Shown here: positions 11,500 through 45,743 of the stretch, in pieces | Layout: every line of letters begins with the position of its first letter | Position numbering within the stretch: position 1 is the first letter of the stretch | Assembly: GCA_023898405.1 (NCBI GenBank) | Contig: CP060221.1 | Location: 1,719,381 to 1,783,380, forward strand | Source of the DNA: Myxococcales bacterium | GTDB taxonomy: Bacteria; Myxococcota; UBA727; JABDBI01 | Length of the DNA: 64,000 nt | Direction of reading: 5' to 3' | The notes under the pieces: generated by a model | The model's database searches: none | The model's input: only the letters and a program-made list of their open reading frames with translations | What the model was told of the DNA's origin: nothing | Position numbers and translations under genes: made by a program

Positions 11500-11800
11500 T
11501 TAACTTTCTCATCTTGCCAAGTGATAATGCCTATCTAAATGTAGGTTCAAGTTTGAATGTAGGAGTAAGCACCCAAGCGGCAGAACGCCTGAAAGGACAA
11601 AAGGGATTTGTACCACAGATATTTCGTTGGGCAGTTGAAAGAACTTTTGCTTGGTTGAATAGAAACCGGCGCCTGGTTCGTAACTATGAGAAGAGTACAA
11701 GGCAACAGGAATCAATGAACTACATCGCTCATGCAAGCTTGTGCATCAAGCGATTGGAAAAGTGGCTTACCGCCTAAATTTTGATTTATTTTACAGCCTC
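11500..11800 (+). mobile_element. Partial IS5-family element (3' ~300 bp), same family as the full copy at 28633..29537
   Basis: ORF 11514..11777 matches the C-terminal ~85 aa of the transposase at 28656..29471 (VGVST.AERLKGQKGFVPQIFRWAVERTFAWLNRNRRLVRNYEK). Terminal repeat TTTGATTTATTTTACAGCCTC ends at 11800, followed by TAA. Confidence 0.75.
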
Positions 11801-13685
11801 TAAATCATGATTCAGACAATATAAAATTTCCTTAGCGTACGTTTCCGTCCTAGCCTGAAAAAAATTTGTTCTCTTCTTCTAGACATTTACGACTGTGCTT
11901 ACTGCATAGTCCCCCCGGCCTGACGGTCGGGGGAGCGCTTAGAAATTATAATTTTTTAAAAAAATTCCAATCAAGGAGTCAGCAAACTCAAGGTTTAATT
12001 ACTTATAGTCGCCGTGAAATTTCTTAACCAAAACTTCCTTACGCATTATTATTGTTGTTATTGCCTTTATTGGATGAATGAATAATAACAATGTTTTCGC
12101 TTTCCGAAGCCTTCTCGCGCTTATCAAATAAATAACGAAGACGCTTCAACATTTCTGGTTTTTCAATTAAAACATTTTTTCCCATTGATACAAAATTATG
12201 CATTTTTTCCATCGCCGAGTGCCAATTAATTTCTGGATGAGCAGATATCACAGGATATTTTTTCCAGGATTGATGGAATTCTACTAGATTTTTTTGCAGG
12301 TCAACGGGAATAGTTGTCCATATCAGCACAAATTCTCTGGCAATCCTTAGAGCAAGAGCCTCTATATTTTTTTGAACTGATTTTTCTCTTACGATTCGAT
12401 GTATTACTGACTCTCCCCCATCATTTTGGTCTTGCAACAATTTCAATAGTGATTCTTCATCGGTATTAAAAATAGAATTAATCTGCTTTTCTGATAGCTG
12501 GTAAAGGACACTGTTTAAGATAATTAGCAGCTCTTCTATTAATACCCATTTAAGATCCTTATTAACAAACATCTGCAACACATTATAGCCAACTTCGTTT
12601 TTAGTAACTGATAGATTGTTTAACGATTGTTCAATAGACTCAGCATTATTTAAGTGTTCTGACATTGACTCAAAAAGTTGAGCTTTCTCTTCTTCTGACA
12701 ATTCATATGCCGCACTAATCGCTTTTTTTACTTTATTTTCAAATAGAAAAAACAAATAGCTCGCCATTTCATTTCTTGATATTTCATCTTGATTATTCAG
12801 TGCTATTCCAATTGGCCGAACATAGTTATCAAGAGAAAATAGATATGCCATTCCTGGCAATACACCATTGGCCTCAAAGCTCTCCAATATCTCTTGACGC
12901 TGGCCCTCTAGAAAGACTTTAACGACGTCAATTTTTCCCATACCGACTGCAATGGAAATAACAGAATTGCGATTTTGATCTTCTGCTGTTACATCAGCGC
13001 CATTATCCAAAAGAATTCGTACAATTTCTTGATCATCATTCGATCCATTTTTAAAATTAAGGACTGCAAATCCAAGCGGCGTTATACCTGATTTGCTAGG
13101 TTCATTAATGTTGAAATATTTTTTATTTCGATCATTTAAAAGTAATTCCATTGCGCGTTTTTGTTTTTTTAACGCAGTAAAATGAAGTGCGCTTAATCCC
13201 TTGTCAGTAGTTTTGGCACCGATATCAATTTTCGTATTGAGCAACAACAGCTGCAATTTATCTGTATCACTAAGCCCAGATGCTATGTGGATAGGACGAA
13301 TACCATTCTTTTGTATTGCTAAGTTGACATCAGCACCAACACTAATCAAGTGATTAGCGTAATAGTCATCATCTATTGTAAGTGCGTAATGCAGTAGTGA
13401 ATATCCCGCTAATGGGCTGTTTAGAACCTGTAGGAATTTTTCTTGATTGAATTTTGTTTCAATATAGTCAACCAATTTCTTGAACTCATTTTTCCTATTC
13501 TCTTTGATTGAGTAAAAAAGCACTTCTACATTGCTACTATTTTCGTTAGTCGGATCAAAAATGGTTTCTGGCCGATCCAGCAGATATTTCATAAGCTCCC
13601 AGCTTCCTGTTCTCATAGCTAAAAGCAATAATGTTTTGTCACATAGTTGAGGGCTTAAATTCTCAGGAGCACCTATTTTTTTGTT

Positions 13686-14401
13686 GGGGCTGTAGTAGCT
13701 AAGCCCAATTAAGGGTAAGCTACTTCAATGTATAAGAGACGCAGCCGTTTAACAGTGCGCCAGCAGAGCGAACTGATAAAATTATTTGTTGCTGGTGTAA
13801 CCGCCAGAGCAGCATCAGAACTGGTTATTATTCAATCTAATACAGCCAGTAATTTCTTCTTAAGGTTAAGAAAATTAATAGCCAGCAAACTTCCAAGCTA
13901 TGACTTAAGCGGAGAAATTGAAGTAGATGAAAGTTATTTTGGCGGAGTTCGAAAAGGCAAGAGAGGACGTGGAGCTGGAGGTAAAGTAGCTGTTTTTGGC
14001 CTTCTTAAGCGAGGTGGCAAGGTTTACACAGCCATCATTCCTAATGCAAAAACAGAAACTCTTCTGCCTATTGTAGAAGAGAAAGTTCTTCCGGACAGCA
14101 TAGTTTATACAGATACCTTTAAATCATATAATGCCTTAGATGTATCTGCATTTCACCATATGCGCATTAATCATTCCAAGCTGTTTGCTGATAAGCAAAA
14201 CCATATCAATGGGATTGAGAACTTCTGGAACCAAGCCAAACGCAATCTGCGTAAGTTTAATGGGATAAAACAGGATAATTTTTATTGGTTTCTTAAGGAA
14301 TGTGAATGGCGCTTCAACGGAGGCAATCACCAACAGCTTCTAAAACAGCTAAAATACTGGTATAAACACACTAAACATTAACGCTTAGCTACTACAGCCC
14401 C
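13686..14401 (+). mobile_element. IS1595-family insertion sequence, apparently intact
   Basis: Perfect 19-bp terminal inverted repeats GGGGCTGTAGTAGCTAAGC (13686..13704) and GCTTAGCTACTACAGCCCC (14383..14401), flanked by an 8-bp direct duplication TTTTTGTT (13678..13685 and 14402..14409). Confidence 0.85.
13728..14381 (+). CDS. IS1595-family transposase
   Basis: 217-aa ORF with the typical IS1595/ISXO2-like basic Gly-rich segment (DESYFGGVRKGKRGRGAGGKVAVFGLLKRGGKVYT) and C-terminal NHSKLFADKQNHINGIENFW region. Confidence 0.85.
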   Translation: MYKRRSRLTVRQQSELIKLFVAGVTARAASELVIIQSNTASNFFLRLRKLIASKLPSYDLSGEIEVDESYFGGVRKGKRGRGAGGKVAVFGLLKRGGKVYTAIIPNAKTETLLPIVEEKVLPDSIVYTDTFKSYNALDVSAFHHMRINHSKLFADKQNHINGIENFWNQAKRNLRKFNGIKQDNFYWFLKECEWRFNGGNHQQLLKQLKYWYKHTKH

Positions 14402-14969
14402 TTTTTGTTTATATGAACATAGTTTGGGTCAGCTGACGGCGCCAAATTAAAAAACATTTGCACATCAAAGGCATTATTTTTTACTTGCTGATCATTAATA
14501 TAGCTCTGAATAGCTTCAATTTTTTCCTCTGATTTAGCTTCGCCTTCTAAATGGGTAATCAACAATTCATATTCATTGGACTGTATTTCGTCGACGCCAG
14601 CAATTGAATGATGATCAATTTGATCTACATCACCACACCAAACTCTAACACAGCTAAAAAACAACGATAGAAAGCTTAAAAGCAGAACATTAAAACTCAT
14701 TTTATTTCCTATTTATATCTAATAAATTTCTCCTAGCACAACGCGCAAAATTATCAATAATTTATCTGGGCTCATCACATAAAAAACTGAAAAAATATAA
14801 GTGTAACATAAAAACCGCTTTATGGGTTCTAGAGCCTGCTCAAAACCTAAGCGCAAGGCCAAAAAATATCTTGACTGCCTGCACTGTAATAAAGCTTTCA
14901 CCTATAAAGCCCTCATTACTGTACTACGGCAAGGAGAAAATATAATATGGCCTCGCTTTCATTGTCTTA

Positions 14970-15290
14970 TCAGTTCAAAATTAAATTTTTAAGAACAAGA
15001 GTCTTCTCGCAAAAATAGATTACTTCTGAGTCCAAATGCACAAGCATGCGGTCGTGTTCAATTGCTTCAAAAATAAGCGCGTCCACGCATTGCGTCAGGC
15101 TTTCAACAGCTTTAAATATTATCTCGCCATCAACACTATAATTATAAAAAATTTCACCTGGAATTTCACCATTTACCAGCTGTTCGTCACCTTTCTCTTT
15201 TACTATTTTTAGTGGCTCAAGTGATTGAGCAAAAGCCAAATGAAAGGAAAATAATAATACTAATAAATATATCTTCTTCATGAATGCCAC
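14970..15290 (-). CDS. Hypothetical small secreted protein
   Basis: 106-aa ORF; internal Met gives signal peptide MKKIYLLVLLFSFHLAFAQS. No recognisable domain. Confidence 0.4.
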   Translation of the reverse strand: MAFMKKIYLLVLLFSFHLAFAQSLEPLKIVKEKGDEQLVNGEIPGEIFYNYSVDGEIIFKAVESLTQCVDALIFEAIEHDRMLVHLDSEVIYFCEKTLVLKNLILN

Positions 15291-15562
15291 CTAAATAGTT
15301 GTCAGTGTGCATGTTGTTTTCGTGATTAGAAATAATTAGTTGTTTATTGTTTTATGGGGAATATTGTTATTATTATTTTCATTGTTTTTATGTCTTTAAT
15401 TTACTGGTTAATTGTGGTGGTTCGCAACGCAGCGAACACCTAAGCTCGACTTTGGCCGAAATTGAAACGAATCGGTAGCTTCAAAAGAACAGAAGATTGG
15501 AATAAGCTGATCTACCCTCAAGAGCTGCCGAGAAATGAAAAGAGCACATCATAAAAGATTTC

Positions 15563-16007
15563 ATGAACAATTTTGCCGAATGCCTTAGTTCTCCTAGTCT
15601 GAGTCGGCTGAGTGAACTTCTTGCTGCAAGAATTATCACCATCGAAAAAACTACAGTCACGAACTTATCAAGGGTATTCGGCTTCGATCCCTACAACAGT
15701 CCCTGGCATCACCTATTTTCACGCTATCGAATCTCGCTTTGGGCATTATCATTTGTTCTTATAAAGTTGATTCGAAAGACTTTTGTTGCAGATGGACAAG
15801 CACGTTTTTGTTGTCGATGACACAAGGTGCTTGCATAACGGCAAAATTGTTTTTGGCAAGGCAAAGCATCGTGATGCCGCACGCTCATCTCATGCTGTTA
15901 CCACTTTGCTATGGGGACATACTCAAAATGCTCTTGAGCATAAGATTTTATCTTTGGAAGCCTCACCTATTTCAAAACAGTTTCTAAAGCTCATGATTGG
16001 TAATTAA
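15563..16007 (+). pseudogene. Possible degraded DDE transposase remnant (IS701/IS4-like), frameshifted
   Basis: Two overlapping short ORFs in different frames (15563..15820, 15783..16007); the second contains HVFVVDDTRCLHNGKIVFGKAKH resembling the first catalytic Asp region of IS701/IS4-type transposases. Weak. Confidence 0.3.
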
Positions 16008-17207
16008 CTTAAGGGCTTTCTGATATTCCGCGCTTTGTTTGGTGATCTCGGCTGCCTGCAACAAGAGATCTATAGTCTTTTCGGTTGTACTATCGAGTTC
16101 GGTAATTTCGGGATAGTTGGCATTATCAAGCAGGGTTTGAATGCGAATATAATGGGAACCTGGCAGGGATTCAAAGATATTTTCCATAGCTCCTTCGTCT
16201 TCATTTGATGAACCATCTATTAGGGCATCTATTACAGCTGGAGCCCATGTTGCCGCTCCAGCATTGAGTAAGCTTGAACCATTATGACTGTTGAGAACTC
16301 CCTTGCCAGTTCCAATAGAGACAAGAACAATCCCTCGACGTAAAATCTCAGCTCGGCCGAAAATCCTTTCAGCTTTGTCAAAAGCTAAAGGAGCAGGATT
16401 ATTTTTGTAGATGCCGCCATCTATGAGAAATGCTTGGTAAGGCCGATTGTTTGAGTTTATGAGAGTTACTTCCTTGGGAATAAAAAAGGTGGGTGCCGCC
16501 GAAGTGGCGCGTGCAACTTCAAGCACATTAAGGTGTGAAAATTTGGCATTATCACTTTCCAAAGAAATACCTTGTTTTTCTTCTATAGAAAAAGTTGTGA
16601 GTAAAGTTGGTATGAGAGATTCAGAAAAAAGTTTTTTGCCAAAAGTTTTCTGTATGAGTGCTTCCATGGACAAAGCATCATAGAGGGGTCCTCGCAAACT
16701 GCAGACGGTTTTAGGTATTAAATTTGAACAGCTGTATTTAAAAATTAAACGAGCATTATCTTTATAAAATTTTTCAGCCTCTTTTACCGTCAGTGGCAGC
16801 TTGTCTTTTGAAAGAGGCATGGTGAGCAGTAAGGAGAGTAATCCTCCTGTAGATGTTCCTGCAATAAGATCAAAGAGCTCGTATATTCTTTTATCAGAGA
16901 CCTGTTCAAACTTTTGTAAGAGTCTTGCAAGAAGAACGCCGCGTATACCTCCACCATCAAGGCTTAATACCTTTATTGGGTTTAGTTTTTGGTTTTCGTA
17001 ATTTTCATCGGGAGCTTCAAGTCCTTCAGTCTCGTTTGCGATAGGTTTTTCAACAGGTGTGAACTTTTTAACTTCTTGGCTGCTTTTAGAGCCGTTTTTA
17101 GGCTGATCGACAAAGGAGTTGGGGGCATCACTGCATGATGAAACGATAAGAGTTTGAAATAAAAAACAGGATAAAAAAACTGTGAAAAATAAATTATTTG
17201 ATTTCAT
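15984..17207 (-). CDS. Patatin-like phospholipase, secreted/lipoprotein
   Basis: 407 aa; oxyanion motif LDGGGIRG, nucleophile motif AGTSTGG, catalytic Asp motif IDGGIYKNNP; N-terminal signal peptide with a lipobox-like LIVSSCS. Confidence 0.85.
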   Translation of the reverse strand: MKSNNLFFTVFLSCFLFQTLIVSSCSDAPNSFVDQPKNGSKSSQEVKKFTPVEKPIANETEGLEAPDENYENQKLNPIKVLSLDGGGIRGVLLARLLQKFEQVSDKRIYELFDLIAGTSTGGLLSLLLTMPLSKDKLPLTVKEAEKFYKDNARLIFKYSCSNLIPKTVCSLRGPLYDALSMEALIQKTFGKKLFSESLIPTLLTTFSIEEKQGISLESDNAKFSHLNVLEVARATSAAPTFFIPKEVTLINSNNRPYQAFLIDGGIYKNNPAPLAFDKAERIFGRAEILRRGIVLVSIGTGKGVLNSHNGSSLLNAGAATWAPAVIDALIDGSSNEDEGAMENIFESLPGSHYIRIQTLLDNANYPEITELDSTTEKTIDLLLQAAEITKQSAEYQKALKLITNHEL

Positions 17208-17531
17208 TCAATTTCCTGTGCTGTATTTTTAATTTAAAAGTTTTTGGTGCGTTTTTTTCTATTATGTTTTTCTTATCAAATATTTTGTTAAAGACTGATT
17301 TCTTACAATAAGTTATTGCATGATATCTATGTCAATTTTTATTTTTTGCAAACCCGGATAAGTGTAACTGCTATCTTCCTGTTTTATTATCGAAAATAAC
17401 TAATGACTGTGCTGTAAAAACCTACTTTGACATTTGAGGTTATTTCTGGAACAGCACAGATGAACTTTTCCCCAGCAGGGGCCCCTTAATTTTAAAAAAT
17501 TAAAAGTTGTAATTATGCAGGCTATAATCTG

Positions 17532-18755
17532 ATGAACAATTCCAATTCCCTCCAACTTAAAAGAGTAATCACTCTTTATGCTATGGGTTTTTTGTTGATT
17601 TTTGGCTATTCTTTTGCTCGGCCTTGTATCGATTCCATTTACCTTGAGCATTATTCCAGTGACACATTGCCAAATGCTTGGTTGCTTACGGCTTTTTTGT
17701 CCGCGTTCGTAATAGCCATTTATAATCGTATCAATCAGCGATATTCGATTCTCTCGCTTTATGGTTGGCTTTCCCTTCTCTGTGCAGGAAGTTTGGCTCT
17801 ACTTTTGGCTGCCTATTTTTGGGGTTTCATTCCTGCAATTTTTATTCTCTATGTCTGGAAAGAAATTTACATGGTGGTTTTGGTCGAAACCTATTGGAGT
17901 TTTGCTGACATGGTTTTTTCCATAAGTTCAGCTCGTCACACCTATGGTTTGGCTATGGCCGTCAGTTCGCTTGGTGGGGTATTTGGCAATTTAATTGTAG
18001 GTCCTTTTGCGCGAACTGTCGGATCAAGATGGGCCCTTTGGTCATTGGTATTTTTGCTGATATTAGGATTTTTTATTGCCTATTGCGCGCGATCCATTGG
18101 CGATGAAAAACCACAAGAATCTAAAAAAACTGCAAAGATGGGAGTTGGCATTAAGACCTTGCTTCAGAGCAGGTATTTGGTTCCTCTGGCTTTGTTGGTG
18201 TGCACAGTTCAGGTAGTGACGGGCTTAATCGATTTTAAATTCAACTCGATGTTGCAGGAAAATTACGTCAATACGGATATGCGCACTGAAATGCTTGGCT
18301 ATATTCATGCAACGGTAAATGTTGTGGGGATTGCTATTCAATTGTGTACCGGCCCGATACTCAAGTTATTCGGTATTGCTTCGACTTTTAAGAGTATTCC
18401 TTTTCTATTGGCGGCCTGTCTTTTGGCATTTGTGATTCTGCCTAAATTTGCTTTGATGTTGGCGGTGAAAATTAGTAGTAAGGCTTTGGATTATTCTTTG
18501 TTGAGGGGAGTTAAAGAAATTTTATATATTCCCCTGTCTCGAGAAGAAAAAACCCAGGGCAAGGGGATAATAGATATTTTTATCTATCGTATAGCCAAAG
18601 GTCTTTCTTCGATTTTACTGCTCAGCTTGATTGCCATTGGTTTGAGTGCATATGTTATAGAGCTGTCTTTTGCTTTGGTTGTTATCTGGTTGATACTTGC
18701 CATCGTTATTGCTCGACGCTATCAATTATTGGTGGGTGCTGACGAAAATAGGTGA
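17532..18755 (+). CDS. TLC-family (ATP:ADP antiporter / nucleotide transporter-like) membrane protein, putative
   Basis: 407 aa polytopic membrane protein; C-terminal region KALDYSLLRGVKEILYIPLSREEKTQGKGIIDIFIYRIAKG resembles the TLC/NTT signature (AYIPLD...KGKAAIDVVGGRLGKSG). Shorter than canonical ~500-aa NTTs; substrate unknown. Confidence 0.5.
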   Translation: MNNSNSLQLKRVITLYAMGFLLIFGYSFARPCIDSIYLEHYSSDTLPNAWLLTAFLSAFVIAIYNRINQRYSILSLYGWLSLLCAGSLALLLAAYFWGFIPAIFILYVWKEIYMVVLVETYWSFADMVFSISSARHTYGLAMAVSSLGGVFGNLIVGPFARTVGSRWALWSLVFLLILGFFIAYCARSIGDEKPQESKKTAKMGVGIKTLLQSRYLVPLALLVCTVQVVTGLIDFKFNSMLQENYVNTDMRTEMLGYIHATVNVVGIAIQLCTGPILKLFGIASTFKSIPFLLAACLLAFVILPKFALMLAVKISSKALDYSLLRGVKEILYIPLSREEKTQGKGIIDIFIYRIAKGLSSILLLSLIAIGLSAYVIELSFALVVIWLILAIVIARRYQLLVGADENR

Positions 18756-25719: not shown

Positions 25720-26358
25720 GGTAGTGCGTCAAATTTGTTGAACTATTTTTCTTCTCTCCTTTCTTAAATAAATTGAGTTTGTTCTTAAACAAGATTTGAA
25801 GGAAGGCCATGACTGTTTACCTGCCACTGGAATGCCCGAGCTGTAAAGACACAAAATCCGTTGTTAAATTTGGCAAGAGCTCTAACAGCAAGCAACGCTA
25901 CTGCTGTCAAAATGATAAATGCGATAGGAAAACTTTCATTGTCCGCTATGACAATAAGGGATGGCTTGCAGAAATTAGAGAAAAGATCCTTGATATGGCT
26001 ATGAATGGGGCAGGAATTAGAGATACATCGCGAGTGCTCTGCGTCTCCCAGAAAACTGTGATGTCCACATTAAAAAAAAGGCTGTGCGCTCACCCAATTG
26101 GAATCGAACATTACTTCACTGACGGCTGGGGCGGGTACGAAAGACACATCTCATCGAAACATCTTTCTATTGGGAAAGAAAACACCCAAAAGATCGAACG
26201 AAAACATTTAACTCTGCGAACAAGGATAAAGCGACTGGGGCGCAAAACTATTTGTTTTTCTAAGTCTGAAACCATGCATGACATTGTGCTTGGCTTGTTT
26301 ATAAATAGATATGAATTTGGGATCGCAATTTAGAATTCAACAAATTTGCCGCACTACC
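25720..26358 (+). mobile_element. IS1-family element, short (639 bp), probably internally deleted
   Basis: 23-bp terminal inverted repeats GGTAGTGCGTCAAATTTGTTGAA (25720..25742) and TTCAACAAATTTGCCGCACTACC (26336..26358), one mismatch, with the GGTA(A/G)TGC start typical of IS1. No target duplication evident. Confidence 0.7.
25809..26333 (+). CDS. IS1-family transposase (InsA-like zinc finger/HTH fused to C-terminal InsB-like region)
   Basis: 174 aa: N-terminus CPSCKDTKSVVKFGKSSNSKQRYCCQNDKC and ILDMAMNGAGIRDTSRVL (InsA-like); C-terminus FTDGWGGYER...TQKIERKHLTLRTRIKRLGRKTICFSKS (InsB-like). The region carrying the first catalytic Asp of InsB appears absent. Confidence 0.75.
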   Translation: MTVYLPLECPSCKDTKSVVKFGKSSNSKQRYCCQNDKCDRKTFIVRYDNKGWLAEIREKILDMAMNGAGIRDTSRVLCVSQKTVMSTLKKRLCAHPIGIEHYFTDGWGGYERHISSKHLSIGKENTQKIERKHLTLRTRIKRLGRKTICFSKSETMHDIVLGLFINRYEFGIAI

Positions 26359-26680: not shown

Positions 26681-28243
26681 ATGAACACACAATTTATCTT
26701 GTGGTCATCTATTTTATCCATTTTTTTTTCTTTTCTCGTACATGCTGAGAAGAGCCTTAGTTTTGAGCCGGATCATTATATTAGCTATGATATCAAGGCG
26801 AGAAATGGCCATTGGCAGATGGTTAATTTAAGAGACCAGTTTTTGGAGCCGACTGATTTTTTGGTTAGGGGGCCGATCAAGTATTTGAATCCCACTCTCA
26901 AAAGACACAATAATCAGGTTTTTGAGATAAAAAATAAAAAGCTTCATTATGCTGCATACGAAGTATTTCCTGAATCCAATTATGACATCAATGAAACGGT
27001 TGTGGTTCATAATCAATTTGGCAGCTTTACTTTTGATGCTTTCAAGCCCAGCAGATTACTTGTGCCATCGATTAAGTCGCATATTTTTAAAGGTAAAAAA
27101 GATCGAAAAATTCTTGAAAACAGTGACCACTACCTTTGTTACGATATAAAACCTGAGCTGATTGTAACTGAGGGCGGATATTTGAAAGATGAATTTAGAG
27201 GAAGATCTTTTGATACCTTGATTGCAAAAAGATTATGCAATCCCGTAGCCAAACGACATGACGATAAATATTTTGACATAATAAATGATGTTGAGACGAA
27301 CCATTTGATGTGTTTTGAGCTCAGTAAAAAAAGAATCTTTCGTCTACTGCACTTCAAAAATCAATTTGGATTTAGATTTGCTGCTGCACTGAATGATGAA
27401 GAGCTATGTGTGCCTTCGACTAAAATAAAAATCAGAAAAAAATGCGAAGATCAAGTACCTGATTCCGCAGGTATATGCGGAGGCGACTGCCCTGTTGCAA
27501 CCGACTTATGTATTTATATTCCTGAAACCAATGAGTGTGGTTGTGCTCCAGAACAACCGCGATTTTGTGAAGACAATACACCAGATCCTCTTGGTGTATG
27601 CGGCGGAGATTGCCCCGATAATCTTGAATGTATAGCAGATCTAGCAAATCAAAGCTGTTATTGCAAAGAACCACCTAATCCATGTGGTTTAAATGCTGAT
27701 GGTCTGTGCGGAGGCGACTGCCCTGTTGCAACCGACTTATGTATTTATATTTCTGAAACCAATGAGTGTGGTTGTGCTCCAGAGCAACCGCGATTTTGTG
27801 AAGATAATACACCAGATCCTCTTGGTGTATGCGGCGGAGATTGCCCCGATAATCTTGAATGCATAGCAGATCTTAGCAGTCAAAGCTGTTATTGCAAAGA
27901 ACCACCTAATCCATGTGGTTTAAATGCTGACGGTCAGTGCGGAGGCGACTGCTTAGTTGCAAGTGAGATCTGTAGCTTTATTCCAGGAACAAATGAATGC
28001 GGTTGTGCTCCACAAGAACCATTGTTGTGTGAAGATAGTATTCCTGATTCAACCGGAATATGCGGCGGAGAATGTCCAAATAATTCAATATGCGCTCCCG
28101 ATTCAGTCAATCAAAAATGTTTTTGCCGACCGGTAATAGAAAGTTGTGGATTAAATGCCGAAGGTTTGTGTGGAGGAGATTGTTTAGATCCGAGTCAGAG
28201 CTGCACATTTATAATTGGTGCAGATATCTGCGCATGTCTCTAA
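26681..28243 (+). CDS. Secreted Cys-rich tandem-repeat protein (hypothetical)
   Basis: 520 aa; signal peptide; N-terminal half has two related ~110-aa segments (DHYISYDIKARNG... / DHYLCYDIKPELIV...); C-terminal half is 3.5 tandem 77-aa Cys-rich units built on a CGGDCP...C...NxCxC module. RBS AGGGGGAG upstream. Confidence 0.7.
   Translation: MNTQFILWSSILSIFFSFLVHAEKSLSFEPDHYISYDIKARNGHWQMVNLRDQFLEPTDFLVRGPIKYLNPTLKRHNNQVFEIKNKKLHYAAYEVFPESNYDINETVVVHNQFGSFTFDAFKPSRLLVPSIKSHIFKGKKDRKILENSDHYLCYDIKPELIVTEGGYLKDEFRGRSFDTLIAKRLCNPVAKRHDDKYFDIINDVETNHLMCFELSKKRIFRLLHFKNQFGFRFAAALNDEELCVPSTKIKIRKKCEDQVPDSAGICGGDCPVATDLCIYIPETNECGCAPEQPRFCEDNTPDPLGVCGGDCPDNLECIADLANQSCYCKEPPNPCGLNADGLCGGDCPVATDLCIYISETNECGCAPEQPRFCEDNTPDPLGVCGGDCPDNLECIADLSSQSCYCKEPPNPCGLNADGQCGGDCLVASEICSFIPGTNECGCAPQEPLLCEDSIPDSTGICGGECPNNSICAPDSVNQKCFCRPVIESCGLNAEGLCGGDCLDPSQSCTFIIGADICACL
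27466..28158 (+). repeat. Three in-frame 231-bp tandem repeats (units 1 and 2 about 96% identical, unit 3 diverged) inside CDS 26681..28243
   Basis: GCGGAGGCGACTGCC recurs at 27477, 27708 and 27939 (period 231 bp); units 1 and 2 differ at about 9 positions. Confidence 0.85.
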
Positions 28244-28404: not shown

Positions 28405-28632
28405 GAAACCAAAGGTAGTACTTTAGCTGTAAAATTTCGTGAGTGAAAATTATCTATTCGAGAGCTTTGTGAGTAAATCCATCCATAGATTACGTGTCAA
28501 TAAGTGCACTCATGAGATAATACTTGAGGCCAATGATACTCTGCTTGGTGTTTTGCGATATCGTCTTGACTTGATTGGCACCAAGCAAGGATGTGACAAA
28601 GGTGACTGTGGAGCATGTACGGTGCTTCTTAA

Positions 28633-29537
28633 GAGGCTGTAAAAAAAATCAAATCTCAGGTGGTAAGCCAATTTTCCAATCGTCTGATACATAATCTTGC
28701 ATTAGCGATGTAGTTCATTGATTCCTGATGCTTTGTATTCTTCTCATAGTTACGCACCAGACGCCTATTTCGATTCAGCCAAGCAAAAGTTCGTTCTACG
28801 GCCCAACGAAATATTTGTGGTACAAACCCCTTTTGCCCTTTTAAACGTTCCGCAGTTTCTGTGCTTACGCCTACTCTCAAGCCTGAAGACAAATTCTTAT
28901 ATGCGTTATCTCCAAGAATCTTCGCTAATCTGGGAAACTTCTCGCGCTTATTGAGCTCAGTAACCAATTCCTCGCCGGCAACCCTATCAGATACATTTGC
29001 TGCGGTACAAATGCATAGGAGCATCAATCCCATCGTATCAACAACGATGTGGCGCTTTCTTCCATTAATCTTCTTTCCCCCATCCAAACCACGCTCATCT
29101 ACTCCTGGTTCCGCTGTCTGTGATTGGGAGTCGATGGAAACAAGTGAGGGGCTTGCATCTCTGCCAGCACAGGTTCTGACTATTGCCACGAGAATGCAGT
29201 TTAAGACCGCCCACAAACCAGAAACAGACCAGGTGCGAAAATAGTGATAGACAATACCGTGAGGAGGAAAGTCATTGGGTAAACAACGCCACACACAGCC
29301 GTTCTTTAAAACATAGAATATGGCATCAACTATGCTCCGAAAGCTATAGACACGACGTCTGCCTCGTTTGGCGTTAGCAGGAAAAAGTGGCTCAATCACT
29401 TCCCAGGCACAATCTGACAAACAGGTCTCATACAAGCACGACATGATATTTCCTTTCAAAAAGGTTTTCACGTCATACTTTCGTCACAGCGACATTTATT
29501 GAACCAGAATTGCCAAATTGATTTTTTTTACAGCCTC
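28633..29537 (-). mobile_element. IS5-family insertion sequence (IS1031-like, ~905 bp), apparently intact
   Basis: Perfect 20-bp terminal inverted repeats GAGGCTGTAAAAAAAATCAA (28633..28652 and reverse complement at 29518..29537), flanked by a 3-bp direct repeat TAA (28630..28632 and 29538..29540). Single transposase ORF. Confidence 0.9.
28656..29471 (-). CDS. IS5-family DDE transposase
   Basis: 271-aa ORF filling the element, with conserved C-terminal block AERLKGQKGFVPQIFRWAVERTFAWLNRNRRLVRNYEK shared with the remnant at 11514..11777. Confidence 0.9.
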   Translation of the reverse strand: MKTFLKGNIMSCLYETCLSDCAWEVIEPLFPANAKRGRRRVYSFRSIVDAIFYVLKNGCVWRCLPNDFPPHGIVYHYFRTWSVSGLWAVLNCILVAIVRTCAGRDASPSLVSIDSQSQTAEPGVDERGLDGGKKINGRKRHIVVDTMGLMLLCICTAANVSDRVAGEELVTELNKREKFPRLAKILGDNAYKNLSSGLRVGVSTETAERLKGQKGFVPQIFRWAVERTFAWLNRNRRLVRNYEKNTKHQESMNYIANARLCIRRLENWLTT

Positions 29538-29903
29538 TAATGGAAAACCTGTTTTATCGTGTCTTACGCTTGCTCAATTAATAAATGACTCGGATGATAT
29601 TTCTACTATCGAAAGCCTAGCAGAGAACAAAGGAATAGATATTTTGCTCGAAGCTTTTGAAGAGTGTGGCGCTTTGCAGTGCGGTTTTTGTCAGCCAGGA
29701 ATGATTTTATCGGCTAAAGCTTTACTCAGTAAAAATCATGCGCCTAGTCTTGAAGAAATTCGCCAAGCACTAAGCGGCAACCTATGCAGATGTACTGGCT
29801 ATAGTAAAATCTACATGGCAGTTATGGCAGCCGTATTGGTGAAAAACAAAAAAGTAGATTCACTCAAAGAAGCGATTGCTCAGCTAAAAAACGAAAATTA
29901 TCT

Positions 29904-35169: not shown

Positions 35170-35451
35170 GTGTCGATCCATAGTCTTACTAAAGATGCCA
35201 TTGAAAAGATTTTGCAAGAACAATTTAAGCCACTTTCATTAGAGGTTATTGATGACAGTCATGCTCATCGTGGACATGCTGCAGCTTTAGAACAACCACA
35301 GGCAGGTCACTTTAGTGTAATGATGGTGAGTGAGGCTTTTAATGGTTTAAACCAGGTTAAGAGGCATCGCTTGGTTTATCAGGCGCTCGGCGAACTGATG
35401 CATGCCAAAATTCATGCTCTATCTTTGAATCTCAGAGCCATCGACGAGTAA
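35170..35451 (+). CDS. BolA-family protein
   Basis: 93 aa with the BolA core (LEVIDDSHAHRGHAA...HFSVMMVSEAFNGLNQVKRHRLVYQAL). Confidence 0.8.
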   Translation: MSIHSLTKDAIEKILQEQFKPLSLEVIDDSHAHRGHAAALEQPQAGHFSVMMVSEAFNGLNQVKRHRLVYQALGELMHAKIHALSLNLRAIDE

Positions 35452-36261
35452 TTGCATGAGTTCTTTTTTGAGCACCCGAGCGGCATTGCTTGTTTGATTG
35501 TCCGCCCGATAGATCAAACAGTGGCTGTCTTGAATTTGCGGCAATGATACATCCAATAACTCGAGCTCGGGGCTTTTTATGCGCCCCGGAAGTATTCCAA
35601 CTCCCGCACCTGCCTTTACCAAAGCGTTGACCATGCCAAGAGAAGAAGTGGTGATGGTGCGTTTAAAATCTAAGCCTCTTTTTTTTATGCTGTTGAGCAA
35701 ATTTTGTGACTGCAAAAGATCAGGATCTAGAATGAGCGTATCTTTGTTGTAGTTTTTTGCCTGCACATAGAGGCCAACCTGATCACTTTGAAACTCTCGA
35801 ATTACCAAATCAGGGTGATAGGTTGGATTTACTACGATCGCAAAATCAATATCAAAACTAATGACTCGATCAGTAATAACTCGAGAAAGATCGTGTACTA
35901 GCGATATTTCTAAGTTTGGATACTTGCTCATAAGTGCAGTTAAAATAGGCGGTAAGATTCTTATGGCTAAGGCAATGTGAGTACCGATAAAATATCGGCC
36001 ACTCACGAGATCGCTTTGCTTTTTTATATCAGAGCACAAATTCTCCCAAAGGCTGAGTAGCTCATGAGAGCGTTCCTTAAAAAGTTGACCAGCCTTGGTA
36101 ATCTCTACGCCTGATTTGGAGCGAATAAAAAGAGGTGTACCTGCAAAATTTTCAAGCCGTTTTATTGCAAGACTAAGTGATGGCTGAGCTAAACCTAGGA
36201 GCTCAGATGCTCGAGAAATATTTTTACTCTTACAGACGGTTAAAAAATATTTTAGATCCAT
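35419..36261 (-). CDS. LysR-family transcriptional regulator
   Basis: N-terminal HTH MDLKYFLTVCKSKNISRASELLGLAQPSLSLAIKRLENFAGTPLFIR and LysR substrate-binding fold. Start at Met of MDLKYF (36261). Confidence 0.9.
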   Translation of the reverse strand: MDLKYFLTVCKSKNISRASELLGLAQPSLSLAIKRLENFAGTPLFIRSKSGVEITKAGQLFKERSHELLSLWENLCSDIKKQSDLVSGRYFIGTHIALAIRILPPILTALMSKYPNLEISLVHDLSRVITDRVISFDIDFAIVVNPTYHPDLVIREFQSDQVGLYVQAKNYNKDTLILDPDLLQSQNLLNSIKKRGLDFKRTITTSSLGMVNALVKAGAGVGILPGRIKSPELELLDVSLPQIQDSHCLIYRADNQTSNAARVLKKELMQLLVDGSEIQR

Positions 36262-36360
36262 AGCTTGAGGCATCATATAAAAATTTCCTATGATTTAATT
36301 GGTTTAAAGCATGGACTTCGAGATTTTATTCGAGAGAGCATTGCATATACCAATCCCATA

Positions 36361-36438
36361 AATTAACTGAGCTTTTAATTTCTTCCTGGTCCTCGCTTTG
36401 CTGCGGGTGTTCAGAAATTAAAGGCTCAGTTAAATTCT
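36361..36438. repeat. Palindromic ~80-bp repeat element, copy 1 (inverted relative to copy 2)
   Basis: TTAACTGAGC...GCTCAGTTAA terminal 10-bp inverted repeats around a core containing TGCTGCGGGTGTTCAGAAATTAAA; the reverse complement matches the copy at 38105..38186 at about 85% over ~60 nt. Confidence 0.6.
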
Positions 36439-36457
36439 GGGATTTTGTATTAAAAGC

Positions 36458-37879
36458 CTAGCACGTTTCTTCTGTATTTTGCACGTTGACACCTTGGTCA
36501 GCTGAGGATGCTGAGCGATTGAGCAGACTATTTTTATAGCCGTAGAAAGCATAGATCATTATTCCTGCCACCATCCATACGATGAATCTTAACCATGTTT
36601 CAGCGGGCAGGCTCACCATTAGATAGAGGCAAAAAATAATTCCCATAACGGGGATGAAAGGGTGAAATCCAAGTTTAAAAGGTCTGTGCATTTCAGGCTT
36701 ACTTATTCTTAGAACGATCACTCCGCTGCACACGAGAATAAATGCGGCAAGTGTGCCAATGTTGACCATCTCCGCAAGTTTACCAATAGGAGTTAGTCCT
36801 GCGATGATGGACATAAAAACACCGCTAAGCATGATGATGGAGACAGGAGTTTTTGTTTTTGGATGGACTTTGGCAAAGCGCTGCGAGAGCAATCCATCCC
36901 GAGAAATAGCTAAGAATATTCGCGAGAATCCATAGTAGAGAACCAGCATCACTGTAGTGAGACCTGCAATGGCTCCTGCAGAAATAAAGCCTGCAGCAAT
37001 CGGGTGATCGAGGTTAAGTAAAACTTCCGCTACCGGAGATTTAACATTCAATGATGTGTAAGGAACTATCAGGGTGAGTAGGGCCGATACCATCATGTAA
37101 ATTGCTGTGCAGACAAAGAGAGATACAATAATTCCTATGGGAAGATTTTTTTGTGGGTTAATGGTTTCTTCTGCGGCGGTTGAAACAGCATCAAACCCAA
37201 TGTAAGCAAAAAATACCAAAGCTGCACCCTGCATTACTCCATGCCAGCCAAAAGGCATAAAACTTTGCCAGTGTTGTCCATCGACGTGAGTAAAAGAAAC
37301 ACCAATAAATGTTGCAATAGCTAAAAGTTTGACGAATACAATCACGGTGTTAAAGCGCGTACTTTCACGGGTACCAATGCTTAATAAAACAGCAAGTAGC
37401 AATATAATGAGAGAAGCTGGTAAATCGATGATGCCACCTTCAAAAAAGTTTTTACTAAGAGCTACGGGAAGCGATATTCCCATGGAAGCTAAGGCATTTG
37501 AAACATAGCCCGACCAGCCGATAGCAACAGTAGAAATACCAAGCCCATATTCAAGCAACAAATCCCACCCGATGATCCAAGCGATAAATTCGCCGAGTCC
37601 AGCATAGGCATAGCCATATGCACTTCCGCATCCACCAATGCTTGCGGCCAATTCCGCATAAGAAAGTGCTACAAAAACACAGGCAAGACCAGCCACAATA
37701 TAGCTTAAAATAATTGCAGGGCCTGCGCTGGTTGCGGCTACAACACCGGTTATCACAAAGATACCAGCGCCAATAATTGCCCCTACTCCTAAAAATGTTA
37801 CATCCATTGCACCGAGACAGCGTTTTAATGATCCTTCACCGTCGGTGGAACCAATAGGTTTTGTTCGCAAAAGACTCAT
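36458..37879 (-). CDS. APC-family amino acid permease
   Basis: 473 aa, ~12 predicted TM segments, typical APC N-terminal signature (FLGVGAIIGAGIFVITGVVAATSAGPAIILSYIVAGLACVFVALSYAELA). Confidence 0.9.
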   Translation of the reverse strand: MSLLRTKPIGSTDGEGSLKRCLGAMDVTFLGVGAIIGAGIFVITGVVAATSAGPAIILSYIVAGLACVFVALSYAELAASIGGCGSAYGYAYAGLGEFIAWIIGWDLLLEYGLGISTVAIGWSGYVSNALASMGISLPVALSKNFFEGGIIDLPASLIILLLAVLLSIGTRESTRFNTVIVFVKLLAIATFIGVSFTHVDGQHWQSFMPFGWHGVMQGAALVFFAYIGFDAVSTAAEETINPQKNLPIGIIVSLFVCTAIYMMVSALLTLIVPYTSLNVKSPVAEVLLNLDHPIAAGFISAGAIAGLTTVMLVLYYGFSRIFLAISRDGLLSQRFAKVHPKTKTPVSIIMLSGVFMSIIAGLTPIGKLAEMVNIGTLAAFILVCSGVIVLRISKPEMHRPFKLGFHPFIPVMGIIFCLYLMVSLPAETWLRFIVWMVAGIMIYAFYGYKNSLLNRSASSADQGVNVQNTEETC

Positions 37880-38104
37880 ATATTTAGGTCCTATTTAATA
37901 TGGTTTCTTTTTGTAACTATACTTTATATGAGAAAGTTGGATTGAAATCATTTGAAATAAGTGGGGGAAAATTTGAATTTAATGATGGTGTATTTTAATT
38001 TTAATTTCGTTTTATTTTTATTTTTTAAAGAATAGGAGAAATGAATTTTGCTACAACTGCCCAAGATATTTACTAAAAATAGACCTCAAGGTGATACCAC
38101 TCTT

Positions 38105-38186
38105 AGAAATTAACCAAGCTTTTAATTTCTGAACACCCGCAGCACAGCAAGGCCTAGGAATAGATTAAAGGCTTGGTTAATTTCTG
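38105..38186. repeat. Palindromic ~80-bp repeat element, copy 2
   Basis: TTAACCAAGC...GCTTGGTTAA terminal inverted repeats around core TTTAATTTCTGAACACCCGCAGCACAGCAAGG; related to copy 1 in opposite orientation. Confidence 0.6.
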
Positions 38187-38268
38187 GGGGTGGTATAGCA
38201 ACTCTACACGCCTTGAAAACAGCGAATGCTTTAGTAGTATCAGTGCTGTTGTTAAATAAGGTAAAATT

Positions 38269-38958
38269 ATGCGATTATTTTTGGCTTTGATTTTATACGG
38301 ACTAATATTTTCATCTTGCAGGCAGCAACTACCAGTAAATCAAAAAATTCCTTCTCAGGCTGATACAACAAAGGTAGATGCTCAAAAGACTCAACGTCGC
38401 ATGCTTTTTTCCATTGATGAGGGAAAGCATGTGCATGGTGATCCCAATGCTCGTGTTCCCGTAGTGGTTTTTATTGACTACTTAAGTGCCCATAGTGCAC
38501 GTAGTTTTCGTGTTTTAAAGGAGTTGTTAGCCGATCAGCAACTTAAGCTTATTATACGTATTTCGTTTCGCCATTATCCTAGAGGACAAGAGAGTATCAA
38601 AGCGGCCAAGGCAGCCCTAGCGTCAGGTTTGCAAGGCAAACATTTTTTTTGGCGCATGTCACAAAAATTGTTTGATGCTGATGGCGAAATAGATGACTCC
38701 ATTTACATCAAAGCAGCACAAGAAATAGGACTCGATAGCCAGCGCTTTAGCCAAGATATGCTTGAAAACGAAAGCAAATTTATGCACCTATTGAGGAGTG
38801 ATGCTACTACAATGCGCAAGGTGAGAAATGTTGCCAAAGTAGGTGAAATTTTTGTGGGAGGTCATATTTATCGGGGACCAATGAAGCGAGCAAGCTTAAA
38901 ACGATTTATTATGGCGGTTAAAAATTATAACGAACGTGCAATCAGTCCAAGTTCGTAG
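38269..38958 (+). CDS. DsbA-like thioredoxin-fold lipoprotein lacking the CxxC active site (putative)
   Basis: 229 aa; lipobox LIFSSC; position expected for CxxC reads FIDYLSAHSARSF (Ser-Ala-His-Ser at 38485..38496). Fold assignment by pattern only. Confidence 0.45.
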   Translation: MRLFLALILYGLIFSSCRQQLPVNQKIPSQADTTKVDAQKTQRRMLFSIDEGKHVHGDPNARVPVVVFIDYLSAHSARSFRVLKELLADQQLKLIIRISFRHYPRGQESIKAAKAALASGLQGKHFFWRMSQKLFDADGEIDDSIYIKAAQEIGLDSQRFSQDMLENESKFMHLLRSDATTMRKVRNVAKVGEIFVGGHIYRGPMKRASLKRFIMAVKNYNERAISPSS

Positions 38959-39019: not shown

Positions 39020-39452
39020 ATTGTCGTAGAAAAGTAATAAGCCGGGTTCTGTCCGCGCTGTCATTGCTGAACAGCGATGGATGGACATTCATCTGGGAGC
39101 ATTGTTGCCAATGCCCTCGAGCGGTCTCCTTAGAAATCTATCACGCGGGCAGCGTGTGGAACTTTCGTCCCAGATTTCCCCATGACCTTTCACCGGGTGG
39201 GGTTTACCGTGCCGCATTTGTCTCCAAATGCGCGGTGTGCTCTTACCACACCGTTTCACCCTTTCCGCTTGGTGATCCGATACCCAGAGGAGACGAAACA
39301 TCGGTCGCAAGTATCGGCATAGCGGAGGTTTATTTTCTGTGACACTATCCTTCAAGTCGCCTTGACCGGCTGTTAGCCGGCACCGCGCCCTATGGTGCCC
39401 GGACTTTCCTCCAAGTGCAAATGCACTCAGCGTCCACCTCTTTTTCTACGGC
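39020..39452 (-). ncRNA. rnpB: RNase P RNA, bacterial type A
   Basis: Minus-strand sequence carries the universal blocks GGAGGAAAGTCCGGGCACCATAGGGC, GGGTGAAACGGTGTGGTAAGAGCACACCG, GGCACGGTAAACCCCACCCGG and ACAGAACCCGGCTTAT; P1 pairing CGTAGAAAAAG (5') with CTTTTCTACG (3') sets the ends. Boundaries +/- 10 nt. Confidence 0.9.
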
Positions 39453-43378: not shown

Positions 43379-44794
43379 ATGGGACATCTAAACGATGGAG
43401 CTAGTAGGCAATTACGTCGAAGAATCCAACAAATTGAATGTGAAATTGTGCGCCTACTCTGCGATGAACCTGATTGGCTTGATACTCATGATAGCGCGTC
43501 TTTGCGGTGGGCGTTGTCGCTTGCCCGTTTAACACGAATTAAAAATCCTGACATTTCTTTAGGGCATGCCAGCGATCGTTATCGAGCTGAATTGTATGCC
43601 TTACTTTCTGAAGCATTGCTTAACGGGATCAACAAAGAAAAAATTAAAGAGCTTCTTCCGAGTATTACCGTATTGGCTAAAAAAGAGCGCAGAGATTTAT
43701 TGTCGTTGTTTTCACTGCTCACTCCGGAAATTTTGGACGAAGCAGTACGAAGACGGCCTTTGGCATTGACTATGAGCGGTGGAGGAGGAACTGCATTTGT
43801 TTTTGTTGGTGCTCTTTACGCTCTTGAAGAAAGCGGCATTACTCCAAGTGTCATCAGTGGCTCATCGATGGGAGCAATATTGGGAGCATACCGAGCTCGA
43901 ACCAAGCACTTTTCTTTTGATGGTGTTGATGCGCTAGTAGAGAAAACTTCATGGGGAAAAATTGCACAGAGTTATTCGGGGCCAAGCCGGTTTGGCGTAC
44001 CTGCCACCTTCAGGTTATATTTGCGGGATGTAGTGGGGCACGAATTTGAATACGAAGACAGGTTCATGCGTCTTAAGGATCTTGAAATACCTTTAAGGGT
44101 ATGTGTAGCAGGTCTTTGCTCTCAGTCAAAAGAATATGATGAAGAGTTGGCTGCTTATGCGCATGCGTTTGATGAAAACCCCAAAGAAAAAAGTAGGAAA
44201 AGTAAATCTGTTATTTCTCTAATTTTGGATTTCGCTCAAAAACCTCTCAAAGCTGTTTATCTTGGAGGAGATGAACTGACAGCGGAGTTTGATGTACTTG
44301 ATGCCATAGGTTTTTCGGCCGCTATTCCAGGTATCTTTCATTATGACATTATGAGAAACGACCCTCGTATGATTGCTTTGGTGAGCAATCTTTTTGCTAA
44401 AGAAGGTATTTTTCGCTTAATTGATGGTGGTTTTGTCGACAATTTGCCTATGCAGGAAGCTATCAATGCTGTGGCCGAGGGGATATGCGATGGCTACGAT
44501 CCATTTGCTTTGGCGCTCGATAGTTTTAGTCCAGGATTTAATCGGCATATTCTTTTTTATCCCCTGATGCGTTTTGCAACAGAAAATAGCAGAGTAGGGC
44601 ATGAAGCTTCAGACTTAACTATTTTTTTTCGGGAAGTACTTTCTCCTATAAATTTGGTACCTACAAAGAAAACTTTTCAGTACGCCATTGATCATGGCCA
44701 TAGGGAATTTTCGGCTCATCTCCCTTTTATTCGTAAAATGGTTGGTCCTATCCCAGATCCAAGTTGGCTTAAAGAAAGCCTGATAAAGAATTAA
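43379..44794 (+). CDS. Patatin-like phospholipase with N-terminal helical extension
   Basis: 471 aa; glycine-rich loop LTMSGGGGTAF, nucleophile GSSMGA, catalytic Asp motif IDGGFVDNLP. Confidence 0.8.
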   Translation: MGHLNDGASRQLRRRIQQIECEIVRLLCDEPDWLDTHDSASLRWALSLARLTRIKNPDISLGHASDRYRAELYALLSEALLNGINKEKIKELLPSITVLAKKERRDLLSLFSLLTPEILDEAVRRRPLALTMSGGGGTAFVFVGALYALEESGITPSVISGSSMGAILGAYRARTKHFSFDGVDALVEKTSWGKIAQSYSGPSRFGVPATFRLYLRDVVGHEFEYEDRFMRLKDLEIPLRVCVAGLCSQSKEYDEELAAYAHAFDENPKEKSRKSKSVISLILDFAQKPLKAVYLGGDELTAEFDVLDAIGFSAAIPGIFHYDIMRNDPRMIALVSNLFAKEGIFRLIDGGFVDNLPMQEAINAVAEGICDGYDPFALALDSFSPGFNRHILFYPLMRFATENSRVGHEASDLTIFFREVLSPINLVPTKKTFQYAIDHGHREFSAHLPFIRKMVGPIPDPSWLKESLIKN

Positions 44795-44885
44795 ATTTTT
44801 TTTTAAAACAAGTTCGTTTCAAACTCAACAAAACCATTAGTGTACAGCGTAAAATAAATACGCTCACTTTTTGCTCGGGGGGCAA

Positions 44886-45743
44886 ATGGTTTTCGATTTT
44901 GATGATTTTGATGTGAGGGAGCGTTTCTACTCAATAGAAGAAAAAACCGAACAATTGCGAATGGAGTTGGATACACTCAAGCCCGAAGAACAACATGCAT
45001 TTAATGAAATTTGTGCTCAAGCATATATTTTTCACGATTCAGCGCTTGAAGGTTTAGTGGTGAGCGGTGATGAAATAAGTTCTGTTTTTAGCACCGATAC
45101 CGATGCTCAGTATATTCGCAGCAGGGTACTGCAGGAAATCCGTAATCATCGAAAAAAACTGCAGGAATTTATTAATCATGCGGCCAGAGTAAGGCATAAC
45201 AGTGCAGTCTATCGTTCAGCTGAGGTTACCATAGAGAATATTTTGGCAACTCACGAAGCTTTATTTGCGAGCGTACCAAGAAAAGAGCCTGGCCAACTGC
45301 GTTGTCAAACTCCTCTTCATATCGCTTATTTTCATGAACTCTGTGAGCCAGAAAAGATTAAAGATCGTCTTTTAGAGCTATGTGAAAAAACCAGAGATCC
45401 TGAATTTCGTACACAGCATCCCATTAATCAGGCGGTGCTCTTTCATTTTTATTTTATGCAAATTTTTCCCTTTCTAGATGGATGTGGCAAGGTTGGGCGT
45501 CTTTTTATGAATAGTTTTCTCATGCAAGGCGGCTATGAGCTAGCGATTATTCATGGAAGTGATCGGCAGCAATACTATGAGACCCTCAAGGAAGGTCCTG
45601 AATCATTGCGACTTTTACTACTAGACAGTATTGATGCTGCACTTGATTCTCGGGCTAATTTTATTAAAGAAATCGACCTTTCCCGTTCAACTGGCCGAAT
45701 TTTTTATAAAAAAACAAAAGAGTATGAGCGAGCAGTCCCTTAG
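44886..45743 (+). CDS. Fic/DOC-fold protein with non-canonical active-site motif
   Basis: Fic-like helices (AQAYIFHDSALEGLVVSGDEIS; HPINQAVLFHFYFMQIFPFLDGCGKVGRLFMNSFLMQGGY). Canonical HPFx(D/E)GNGRxxR is replaced by FPFLDGCGKVGR (45465..45500). ATG at 44886; ORF track begins at TTG 44871. Confidence 0.6.
   Translation: MVFDFDDFDVRERFYSIEEKTEQLRMELDTLKPEEQHAFNEICAQAYIFHDSALEGLVVSGDEISSVFSTDTDAQYIRSRVLQEIRNHRKKLQEFINHAARVRHNSAVYRSAEVTIENILATHEALFASVPRKEPGQLRCQTPLHIAYFHELCEPEKIKDRLLELCEKTRDPEFRTQHPINQAVLFHFYFMQIFPFLDGCGKVGRLFMNSFLMQGGYELAIIHGSDRQQYYETLKEGPESLRLLLLDSIDAALDSRANFIKEIDLSRSTGRIFYKKTKEYERAVP

Follow-up and report, generated by a model that had tools for sequence, protein, structure and literature searches.

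Two inverted palindromic elements around an amino-acid permease gene as candidate members of a lineage-specific miniature repeat family in an uncultured Myxococcales bacterium

An amino-acid permease gene is bracketed by two inverted copies of a palindromic element in the stretch of DNA that we analysed here, 64 kb from an uncultured bacterium labelled Myxococcales (contig CP060221.1; this whole stretch is referred to below as the window). Each copy is an imperfect palindrome of about 104 nt, copy 1 occupying positions 36346-36449 and copy 2 positions 38094-38197. On balance, we lean towards the view that the two are members of a lineage-specific, non-coding family resembling MITEs (small transposable elements with inverted repeats) or REPINs, residing in a genome rich in insertion sequences (ISs). 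The features that speak for this are the long inverted arms, the short asymmetric loop, the location in AT-rich spacers, the lack of an open reading frame (ORF), the restriction to one lineage and the activity of ISs in the host. Among the candidates put forward in an initial annotation of the window it is therefore the MITE-like element that we favour.

Anatomy of the element and paired changes in its stem

The core of the element is oriented on the minus strand in copy 1 and on the plus strand in copy 2, and both copies are supported by a covariance model (128.7 bits on the minus strand and 123.5 bits on the plus strand, respectively), by folding and by a repeat finder. According to the repeat finder, the arms of copy 1 (36352-36383 and 36413-36444) are 32 nt long and 91% complementary, and they enclose an asymmetric loop at about 36384-36412; the arms of copy 2 (38094-38126 and 38164-38196) are 33 nt long and 88% complementary, with a loop at 38127-38163. 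Each copy thus has a stem of 32-33 bp, the arms of which extend to the ends of the element. The initial annotation was right in describing two inverted palindromes that bracket the permease gene, but it took them to be about 80 bp long, and the perfect 10-bp inverted repeats which it placed at their termini, although present, are internal to the longer stem. The inner stem is formed in copy 1 by TTAACTGAGC (36363-36372) paired with GCTCAGTTAA (36424-36433), and in copy 2 by TTAACCAAGC (38110-38119) paired with GCTTGGTTAA (38170-38179).

As for the core shared by the two copies, described earlier as about 60 nt at about 85% identity in opposite orientations, the inverted similarity stands, and between the two elements as a whole it is 83% over 93 nt (36346-36438 against 38105-38197). 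An exact 24-mer, TTTAATTTCTGAACACCCGCAGCA, is common to both copies on opposite strands (36399-36422, minus; 38121-38144, plus). The orientation of the element is set by its loop alone (83% inverted vs 38% direct), and the arms of both copies show the same similarity in either orientation (75-76%). As the arms match equally well both ways, the idea that the loop has been flipped relative to them has no evidence behind it and was set aside. No ORF of at least 20 aa runs across copy 1 or copy 2. For both copies a reading as A-TA-[CCA...TGG]-TA-T is possible, a pattern that would fit a TA target duplication as in Correia or RUP/IS630-type elements. TA is the usual target of the IS630, Tc1-mariner and IS5 types, and a parent IS would be expected to have ends beginning CCA(N)TCCCAGAAATTAAC.

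The two copies are the two longest local inverted repeats of the window. In shuffled windows, the expected number of occurrences was 0.02 for an 18-mer taken from the core and 0.00 for the arm-gap-arm pattern, and each of them was observed twice. Folding gave one long hairpin per copy. As RNA, the elements reach z-scores of -5.5 to -8.5 (-41 to -53 kcal/mol), and as DNA z-scores of -6.1 to -8.3 (about -25.5 kcal/mol); none of 200 shuffled sequences folded as well as the real ones.

The stems differ between the copies in such a way that both arms have changed together, exactly as had been noticed. In the alignment of the two sequences, three of the 33 predicted pairs are altered on both sides with pairing kept, and four further stem pairs are altered on one side only, with G-U pairing kept. 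When the 10 observed stem differences were redistributed at random and the compensated pairs counted, at least three double changes arose with P = 0.002; if the adjacent TG-to-CA pair is regarded as a single event, the figure to use is that for at least two, P = 0.04. The excess of paired changes over chance is real, though it rests on two sequences. We part from the initial annotation in what this excess was taken to mean, namely selection on secondary structure, as the paired changes do not by themselves show selection on RNA structure. Compensatory changes across the hairpin are reported to be common in REPINs (PMC3116915), and paired changes in the arms also follow if the two copies come from source copies with differing arms, or if one arm is corrected by the other.

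Distribution of the element and the case for a mobile family

Seven loci bearing a homologue of the permease were compared, and synteny on the side of the neighbouring DsbA-like gene was found in three related species (L033, L026 and L035/L036), in which the permease orthologues show 84%, 82% and 78% amino acid identity, respectively. In all three the permease has the DsbA-like gene as its neighbour and is oriented as in the window, and synteny further upstream (TsaD, thioredoxins) was seen in L026 and L035; the permease is thus ancestral at this site. BLAST, alignment and the covariance model agree that the element is absent from both permease spacers of these species, and their upstream spacer measures 226-273 nt vs 389 nt in the window. 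Its absence from the orthologous spacers indicates that the elements were gained in the lineage of the window. The variation in presence and absence is at the species level only, as all four assemblies of the same species carry identical copies.

Palindromes of another kind occupy the same two spacers in L026. The permease of this species has on both its flanks an unrelated GC-rich palindromic repeat of 40-85 nt (CGTCATTGCGAGCG...GCTCGCAATGACG), which we located at 9830-9870, 11525-11610, 12680, 16592 and 17218 of that locus, that is in about five spacers in 20 kb (both permease flanks and three or four others), and which was not found in the 64-kb window. It follows that these spacers tolerate palindromic repeats. 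With a repeat so dense, its occurrence at both flanks of the permease can be a matter of chance.

The host genome is one in which at least three IS families are active. It belongs to the uncultured bacterium mentioned above (metagenome-assembled genome, MAG, GCA_020430645.1; 2.5-Mb contig encoding USN50192.1; GC content 39%), and a literature search on this source genome found nothing. The window holds an IS5-family element at 28621-29549 (transposase at 28656-29471 on the minus strand, terminal repeats of 32 nt), an IS1595-family element of 716 bp at 13686-14401 (perfect 19-bp terminal repeats, GGGGCTGTAGTAGCTAAGC) and an IS1-family element of 639 bp at 25720-26358 (23-bp terminal repeats, a single 174-aa ORF). 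The IS5 and IS1595 transposases are each present in at least four identical copies in the 2.5-Mb genome. The IS5 copy of the window is absent from contig JAGQJM010000111.1 of the MAG, in which 29538 joins straight to 28632, and its transposition is thus recent. It needs to be mentioned that the MAG has an intact gene for a 2Fe-2S (Fer2) small subunit, in a xanthine-dehydrogenase-like cluster, which IS5 interrupts in the window. A 282-nt segment at 11523-11804, 82% identical in inverted orientation to 28629-28910, is a partial and diverged copy of the IS5 end, and another contig of the MAG, JAGQJM010000155.1, ends inside the IS1 element.

If the two palindromes are members of a MITE/REPIN-like family, each copy would have been inserted separately, or by local hopping, through a transposase whose gene lies in another part of the genome. 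The hairpin would then be a property of the inverted ends of the element, which a DDE transposase would recognise as paired termini, or an enzyme of the Y1/RAYT type as a single-strand hairpin. The three paired differences in the arms would stem from different source copies, from a constraint at the level of the element or from arm-to-arm correction, and not from an RNA function in the host.

Several results weigh against this assignment, and most of them concern copy number. From the genome itself, the window and 10 kb past its right end were searched, 74 kb of 2.5 Mb in all, and neither BLAST, nor fuzzy matching with up to 6 mismatches in 25, nor the covariance model gave a third copy there, be it full, partial or a solo arm; exact and 2-3-mismatch motif searches of the window gave none either. 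A 15-nt match at 61886-61900 was rejected as a chance, AAGCTT-centred match within a coding region. BLASTN-short against all the loci of the relatives (about 130 kb) gave no copy, and the covariance model, made from the two copies and run over 196 kb, gave no further one. Among the GTDB representatives (185,579 species) the 18-mer had 21 matches vs about 17 expected by a hand estimate of chance, none of them past 21 nt; as the locus of the window itself was not among these matches, the source genome is evidently outside the scanned collection. In JGI metagenomes the arm-gap-arm pattern had no match and the 18-mer had 27, none extending beyond the seed. Two scans of IMG/VR viral contigs gave no match in one case and two matches of only 18-21 nt in the other, and BLAST against plasmid and phage collections gave 25-nt matches only, with no similarity to any known element. 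The absence of further copies, which the initial annotation had counted as an argument against its own proposal, is thus what we found in all the sequence searched, namely this part of the genome, the relatives and the public collections.

With two copies seen in 74 kb, the multi-copy status that defines such families stays putative. MITEs are described as AT-rich, intergenic and able to form stem-loops, with numbers down to 1-22 per genome (PMC10969869). Random dispersal would also not predict a pair separated by 1.7 kb and then no copy over the next 70 kb; local hopping, or a small number of permissive spacers, would explain so close a pair. Furthermore, TA is self-complementary, and a TA duplication is thus inseparable from a longer inverted repeat. 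No precise empty site can be aligned, the spacers of the relatives being too divergent. No parent element was found among the ISs of the window, as the termini of the IS5, IS1595 and IS1 elements are unlike the arms of the two copies, and gene tables covering about 58 kb hold no TA-targeting or Y1 transposase; specifically, a Y1 transposase was found neither in the Pfam tables (about 15.6-74 kb in window coordinates) nor among nine proteins scanned.

The same closeness of the pair may be accounted for by a local duplication, in which one hairpin, such as a former terminator or a defunct repeat, gave rise to an inverted copy of itself across the gene, with neither a family nor mobility involved. 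In favour of such an event are the count of exactly two, the distance of 1.7 kb between them and the lack of a further copy in the other sequence searched, and it keeps some weight with us, although we regard it as unlikely. Neutral drift after a duplication does not give three changes of both arms (the P values of 0.002-0.04 given above apply here). Moreover, no mechanism would put a 104-bp copy precisely into the next spacer without its flanks, and similarity between the flanks was not seen.

The way in which assemblies break at copy 1 also argues against a mere duplication. Two of four independent assemblies, both made from short reads, break there, and none does so at copy 2. A Logan assembly (L002) ends in the loop of copy 1, at window position 36404, and an ENA assembly is split at the outer edge of this copy, where scaffold L003 ends at 36335 and scaffold L069 starts at 36353, with a 19-nt overlap. 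As evidence for a repeat, such breaks are weak and indirect, being equally compatible with a loss of coverage caused by the hairpin.

Position relative to transcripts and possible roles of the hairpins

The permease gene (36458-37879, minus strand) encodes a protein of 473 aa of the APC family, with Pfam domains AA_permease, AA_permease_2 and AA_permease_C. Further downstream on this strand, with copy 1 in between, is a gene for a LysR-family regulator (35419-36276, minus strand; Pfam HTH_1 and LysR_substrate), and copy 1 extends in the 181-nt spacer between the two genes from 8 nt past the permease stop codon to 69 nt before the LysR start codon. Copy 2 is located inside the 389-nt spacer that separates the permease from the divergent DsbA-like thioredoxin-fold gene (38269-38958, plus strand; Pfam Thioredoxin_4 and DSBA), at a distance of 215 nt from the ATG of the permease and 72 nt upstream of that of the DsbA-like gene. 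A sigma-70-like promoter match, TTGAAA-16-TAGTAT (38213-38240, plus strand; a consensus match only), sits between copy 2 and the DsbA-like ATG, and on the permease side the blocks conserved among relatives are all within about 80 nt of the permease ATG. As these features lie between copy 2 and each ATG, copy 2 is probably outside both the permease and the DsbA-like transcripts, upstream of both promoters, and an RNA or terminator role is unlikely for it. Copy 1 may, as a side effect, serve as the 3' stem-loop of the permease mRNA. The gene for the bacterial class A RNase P RNA (39022-39449, minus strand; Rfam, 291 bits) is found about 830 nt from copy 2, and its transcription runs toward the DsbA-like gene.

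This layout bears on another candidate of the initial annotation, a bidirectional terminator or insulator, and on the idea that both elements are cis-acting hairpins selected by the host to insulate the permease transcription unit. Copy 1 would then end or stabilise the permease mRNA and keep out antisense read-through coming from bolA, and copy 2 would do the same for read-through that comes from rnpB and from the DsbA-like region. On one hand, the short distance of copy 1 from the stop codon is in agreement with this, and copy 1 does stand at the 3' end of a transcription unit; no other terminator-like hairpin was found on the minus strand of the 181-nt spacer, and at the same place downstream of the permease there are ordinary terminators in L031 and L035 and a short GC hairpin in L033. 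The presence of a different palindromic repeat on both permease flanks in L026, and the fact that the paired stem changes keep pairing, point the same way.

On the other hand, no T-run directly adjoins either hairpin on the relevant strand: on the minus strand, the hairpin of copy 1 is followed by ATATGCAATGC, and the T-run nearest to copy 2 is about 12 nt past its stem. A terminator scan called neither of the full hairpins, which do not combine a GC-rich stem with a U-tract. Copy 2, placed between two divergent gene starts, is apparently upstream of either promoter, the three related species lack the elements, and the double occupancy in L026 is possibly, as said above, due to chance. The terminator or insulator thus stays weakly possible for copy 1 only, and as an explanation of the pair we find host-selected insulation doubtful. 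An extension of it, in which the hairpins were domesticated as an insulator pair and two sister lineages independently recruited unrelated repeats to the same spacers, has a slight chance at best, taken together with its rationale that permease expression would be isolated from the LysR regulator, from the DsbA-like gene and from rnpB read-through. A derivation of the loop core from the permease terminator of a sister species was also considered and rejected, as the local alignment was no better than with shuffles. In the related species L031, a type III secretion cluster adjoins the permease.

Structured non-coding RNA, likewise put forward in the initial annotation, fares considerably worse, and we hold it to be very improbable that the copies are RNA genes or a regulator acting at the RNA level (a small RNA, or a hairpin targeted by RNase III) with one strand expressed. 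The predicted hairpins are indeed very stable, and the stem of copy 2 has four mismatches, every one of them G-T when the plus strand is read, which makes the RNA helix of this strand perfect (-53.1 vs -40.8 kcal/mol). However, four of four mismatches of this kind on one strand have a probability of about 1/8, and copy 1 has no such bias in the element orientation. If the two copies are brought into one element orientation before folding, one strand of the element gives -42.9 and -53.1 kcal/mol, and the opposite strand -44.8 and -40.8 kcal/mol; neither strand is consistently preferred, and the symmetry thus seems to be a property of the DNA. In an Rfam scan of the 64-kb window RNase P alone passes the threshold, and no family matches the elements at its gathering score: they reach at most 30 bits vs thresholds of 63-245, by generic-hairpin matches far below threshold, the best of which is to a plant miRNA precursor (30 bits vs 245). 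The elements are not conserved in relatives, no promoter-plus-terminator arrangement was seen, and copy 2 is probably untranscribed.

Finally, a recombination device, whether attC-like cassette boundaries, a composite MITE-flanked transposon or an invertible permease segment, is hardly credible. It is true that a single entire gene, together with its promoter region, lies between inverted 93-nt repeats, and that AATTAAC...GTTAATT in the stems matches at 6 of 7 positions the consensus of the attC R''/R' boxes (RYYYAAC / GTTRRRY). However, relatives without the elements keep the permease at the same site, in the same orientation and with the same DsbA-like neighbour, from which it follows that the gene did not arrive as a cassette or composite and was not turned around. 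Besides, the two copies have opposite orientations whereas attC sites are direct, the putative boxes are internal to a palindrome that reaches 20 bp beyond them, and no integrase or invertase is present in the gene tables.

Comparison with known repeats and the setting in the host genome

The elements described here resemble the Correia elements of Neisseria and the RUP elements of Streptococcus pneumoniae (107 bp) in a length of about 100 bp, the lack of coding capacity, long terminal inverted repeats and a hairpin formed by the whole element. They share with them also the AT-rich intergenic sites by gene ends or promoters, TA-compatible flanks, restriction to a lineage and an IS-bearing host (for features of these families, see PMC10969869). 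The differences are that our elements have no sequence similarity to a known element, that two copies were seen in 74 kb, that no cognate transposase or parent IS was identified in the part of the genome covered and that the TA duplication is putative. What they have in common with MITEs in general is a small size (104 nt, within the range of about 50-500 bp) without coding capacity, terminal inverted repeats and presence or absence at the species level.

REPINs, which are mobilised by RAYT Y1 transposases, are similar in having two inverted arms and a less conserved spacer, in forming a hairpin of about 70-110 nt as single-stranded DNA or RNA, in being extragenic and in showing compensatory changes (PMC3116915). 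However, they occur in tens to hundreds of copies, as opposed to a density of 2 per 74 kb here; they are tied to a single-copy RAYT gene flanked by REPs, and no such gene was seen in the tables covering about 58 kb; and REP arms are GC-rich, whereas the arms here are AT-rich. The CGTCATTGCGAGCG repeat of L026 resembles our elements in occupying the same two permease spacers, in being palindromic and in its restriction to spacers, and differs from them in its unrelated, GC-rich sequence and in being demonstrably multi-copy. Rho-independent terminators and SPRITE-type repeats are alike in so far as copy 1 is a stable stem-loop directly after a stop codon, but the stem of 32-33 bp is AT-rich here and has no adjoining U-tract, and copy 2 does not mark the end of a transcript.

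Several other features of the window deserve mention. An ORF of more than 2083 codons (1-6249, minus strand) runs off its left end. The gene for a DUF7450 protein (26681-28243) contains three tandem repeats of 231 nt (77 codons) at 27470-28162; the MAG begins in these repeats, aligning at 97% in a shifted register, and their number may vary, or this may be a misassembly. Within 12039-18755 and 43379-45743 there are also genes for an ankyrin-repeat protein (12039-13628), for a TLC ATP/ADP translocase (17532-18755), for a Fic protein and for two phospholipases of the patatin-like type (15984-17207 and 43379-44794). Genes of these kinds are typical of bacteria that live with a host or inside its cells, and this set of translocase, ankyrin-repeat, patatin and Fic genes suggests a host-associated lifestyle.

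What is new here is most likely one more species-specific miniature repeat of a known general kind. If our reading is true, an uncultured and apparently host-associated lineage would thus gain a miniature palindromic repeat of its own, which is of modest practical value. It is mildly unusual that palindromic repeats of unrelated families stand on both flanks of the same permease in sister species, although this could be chance. Repeats of this kind break short-read assemblies, can lend a stem-loop or a promoter to genes next to them and are signs of recent transposase activity.

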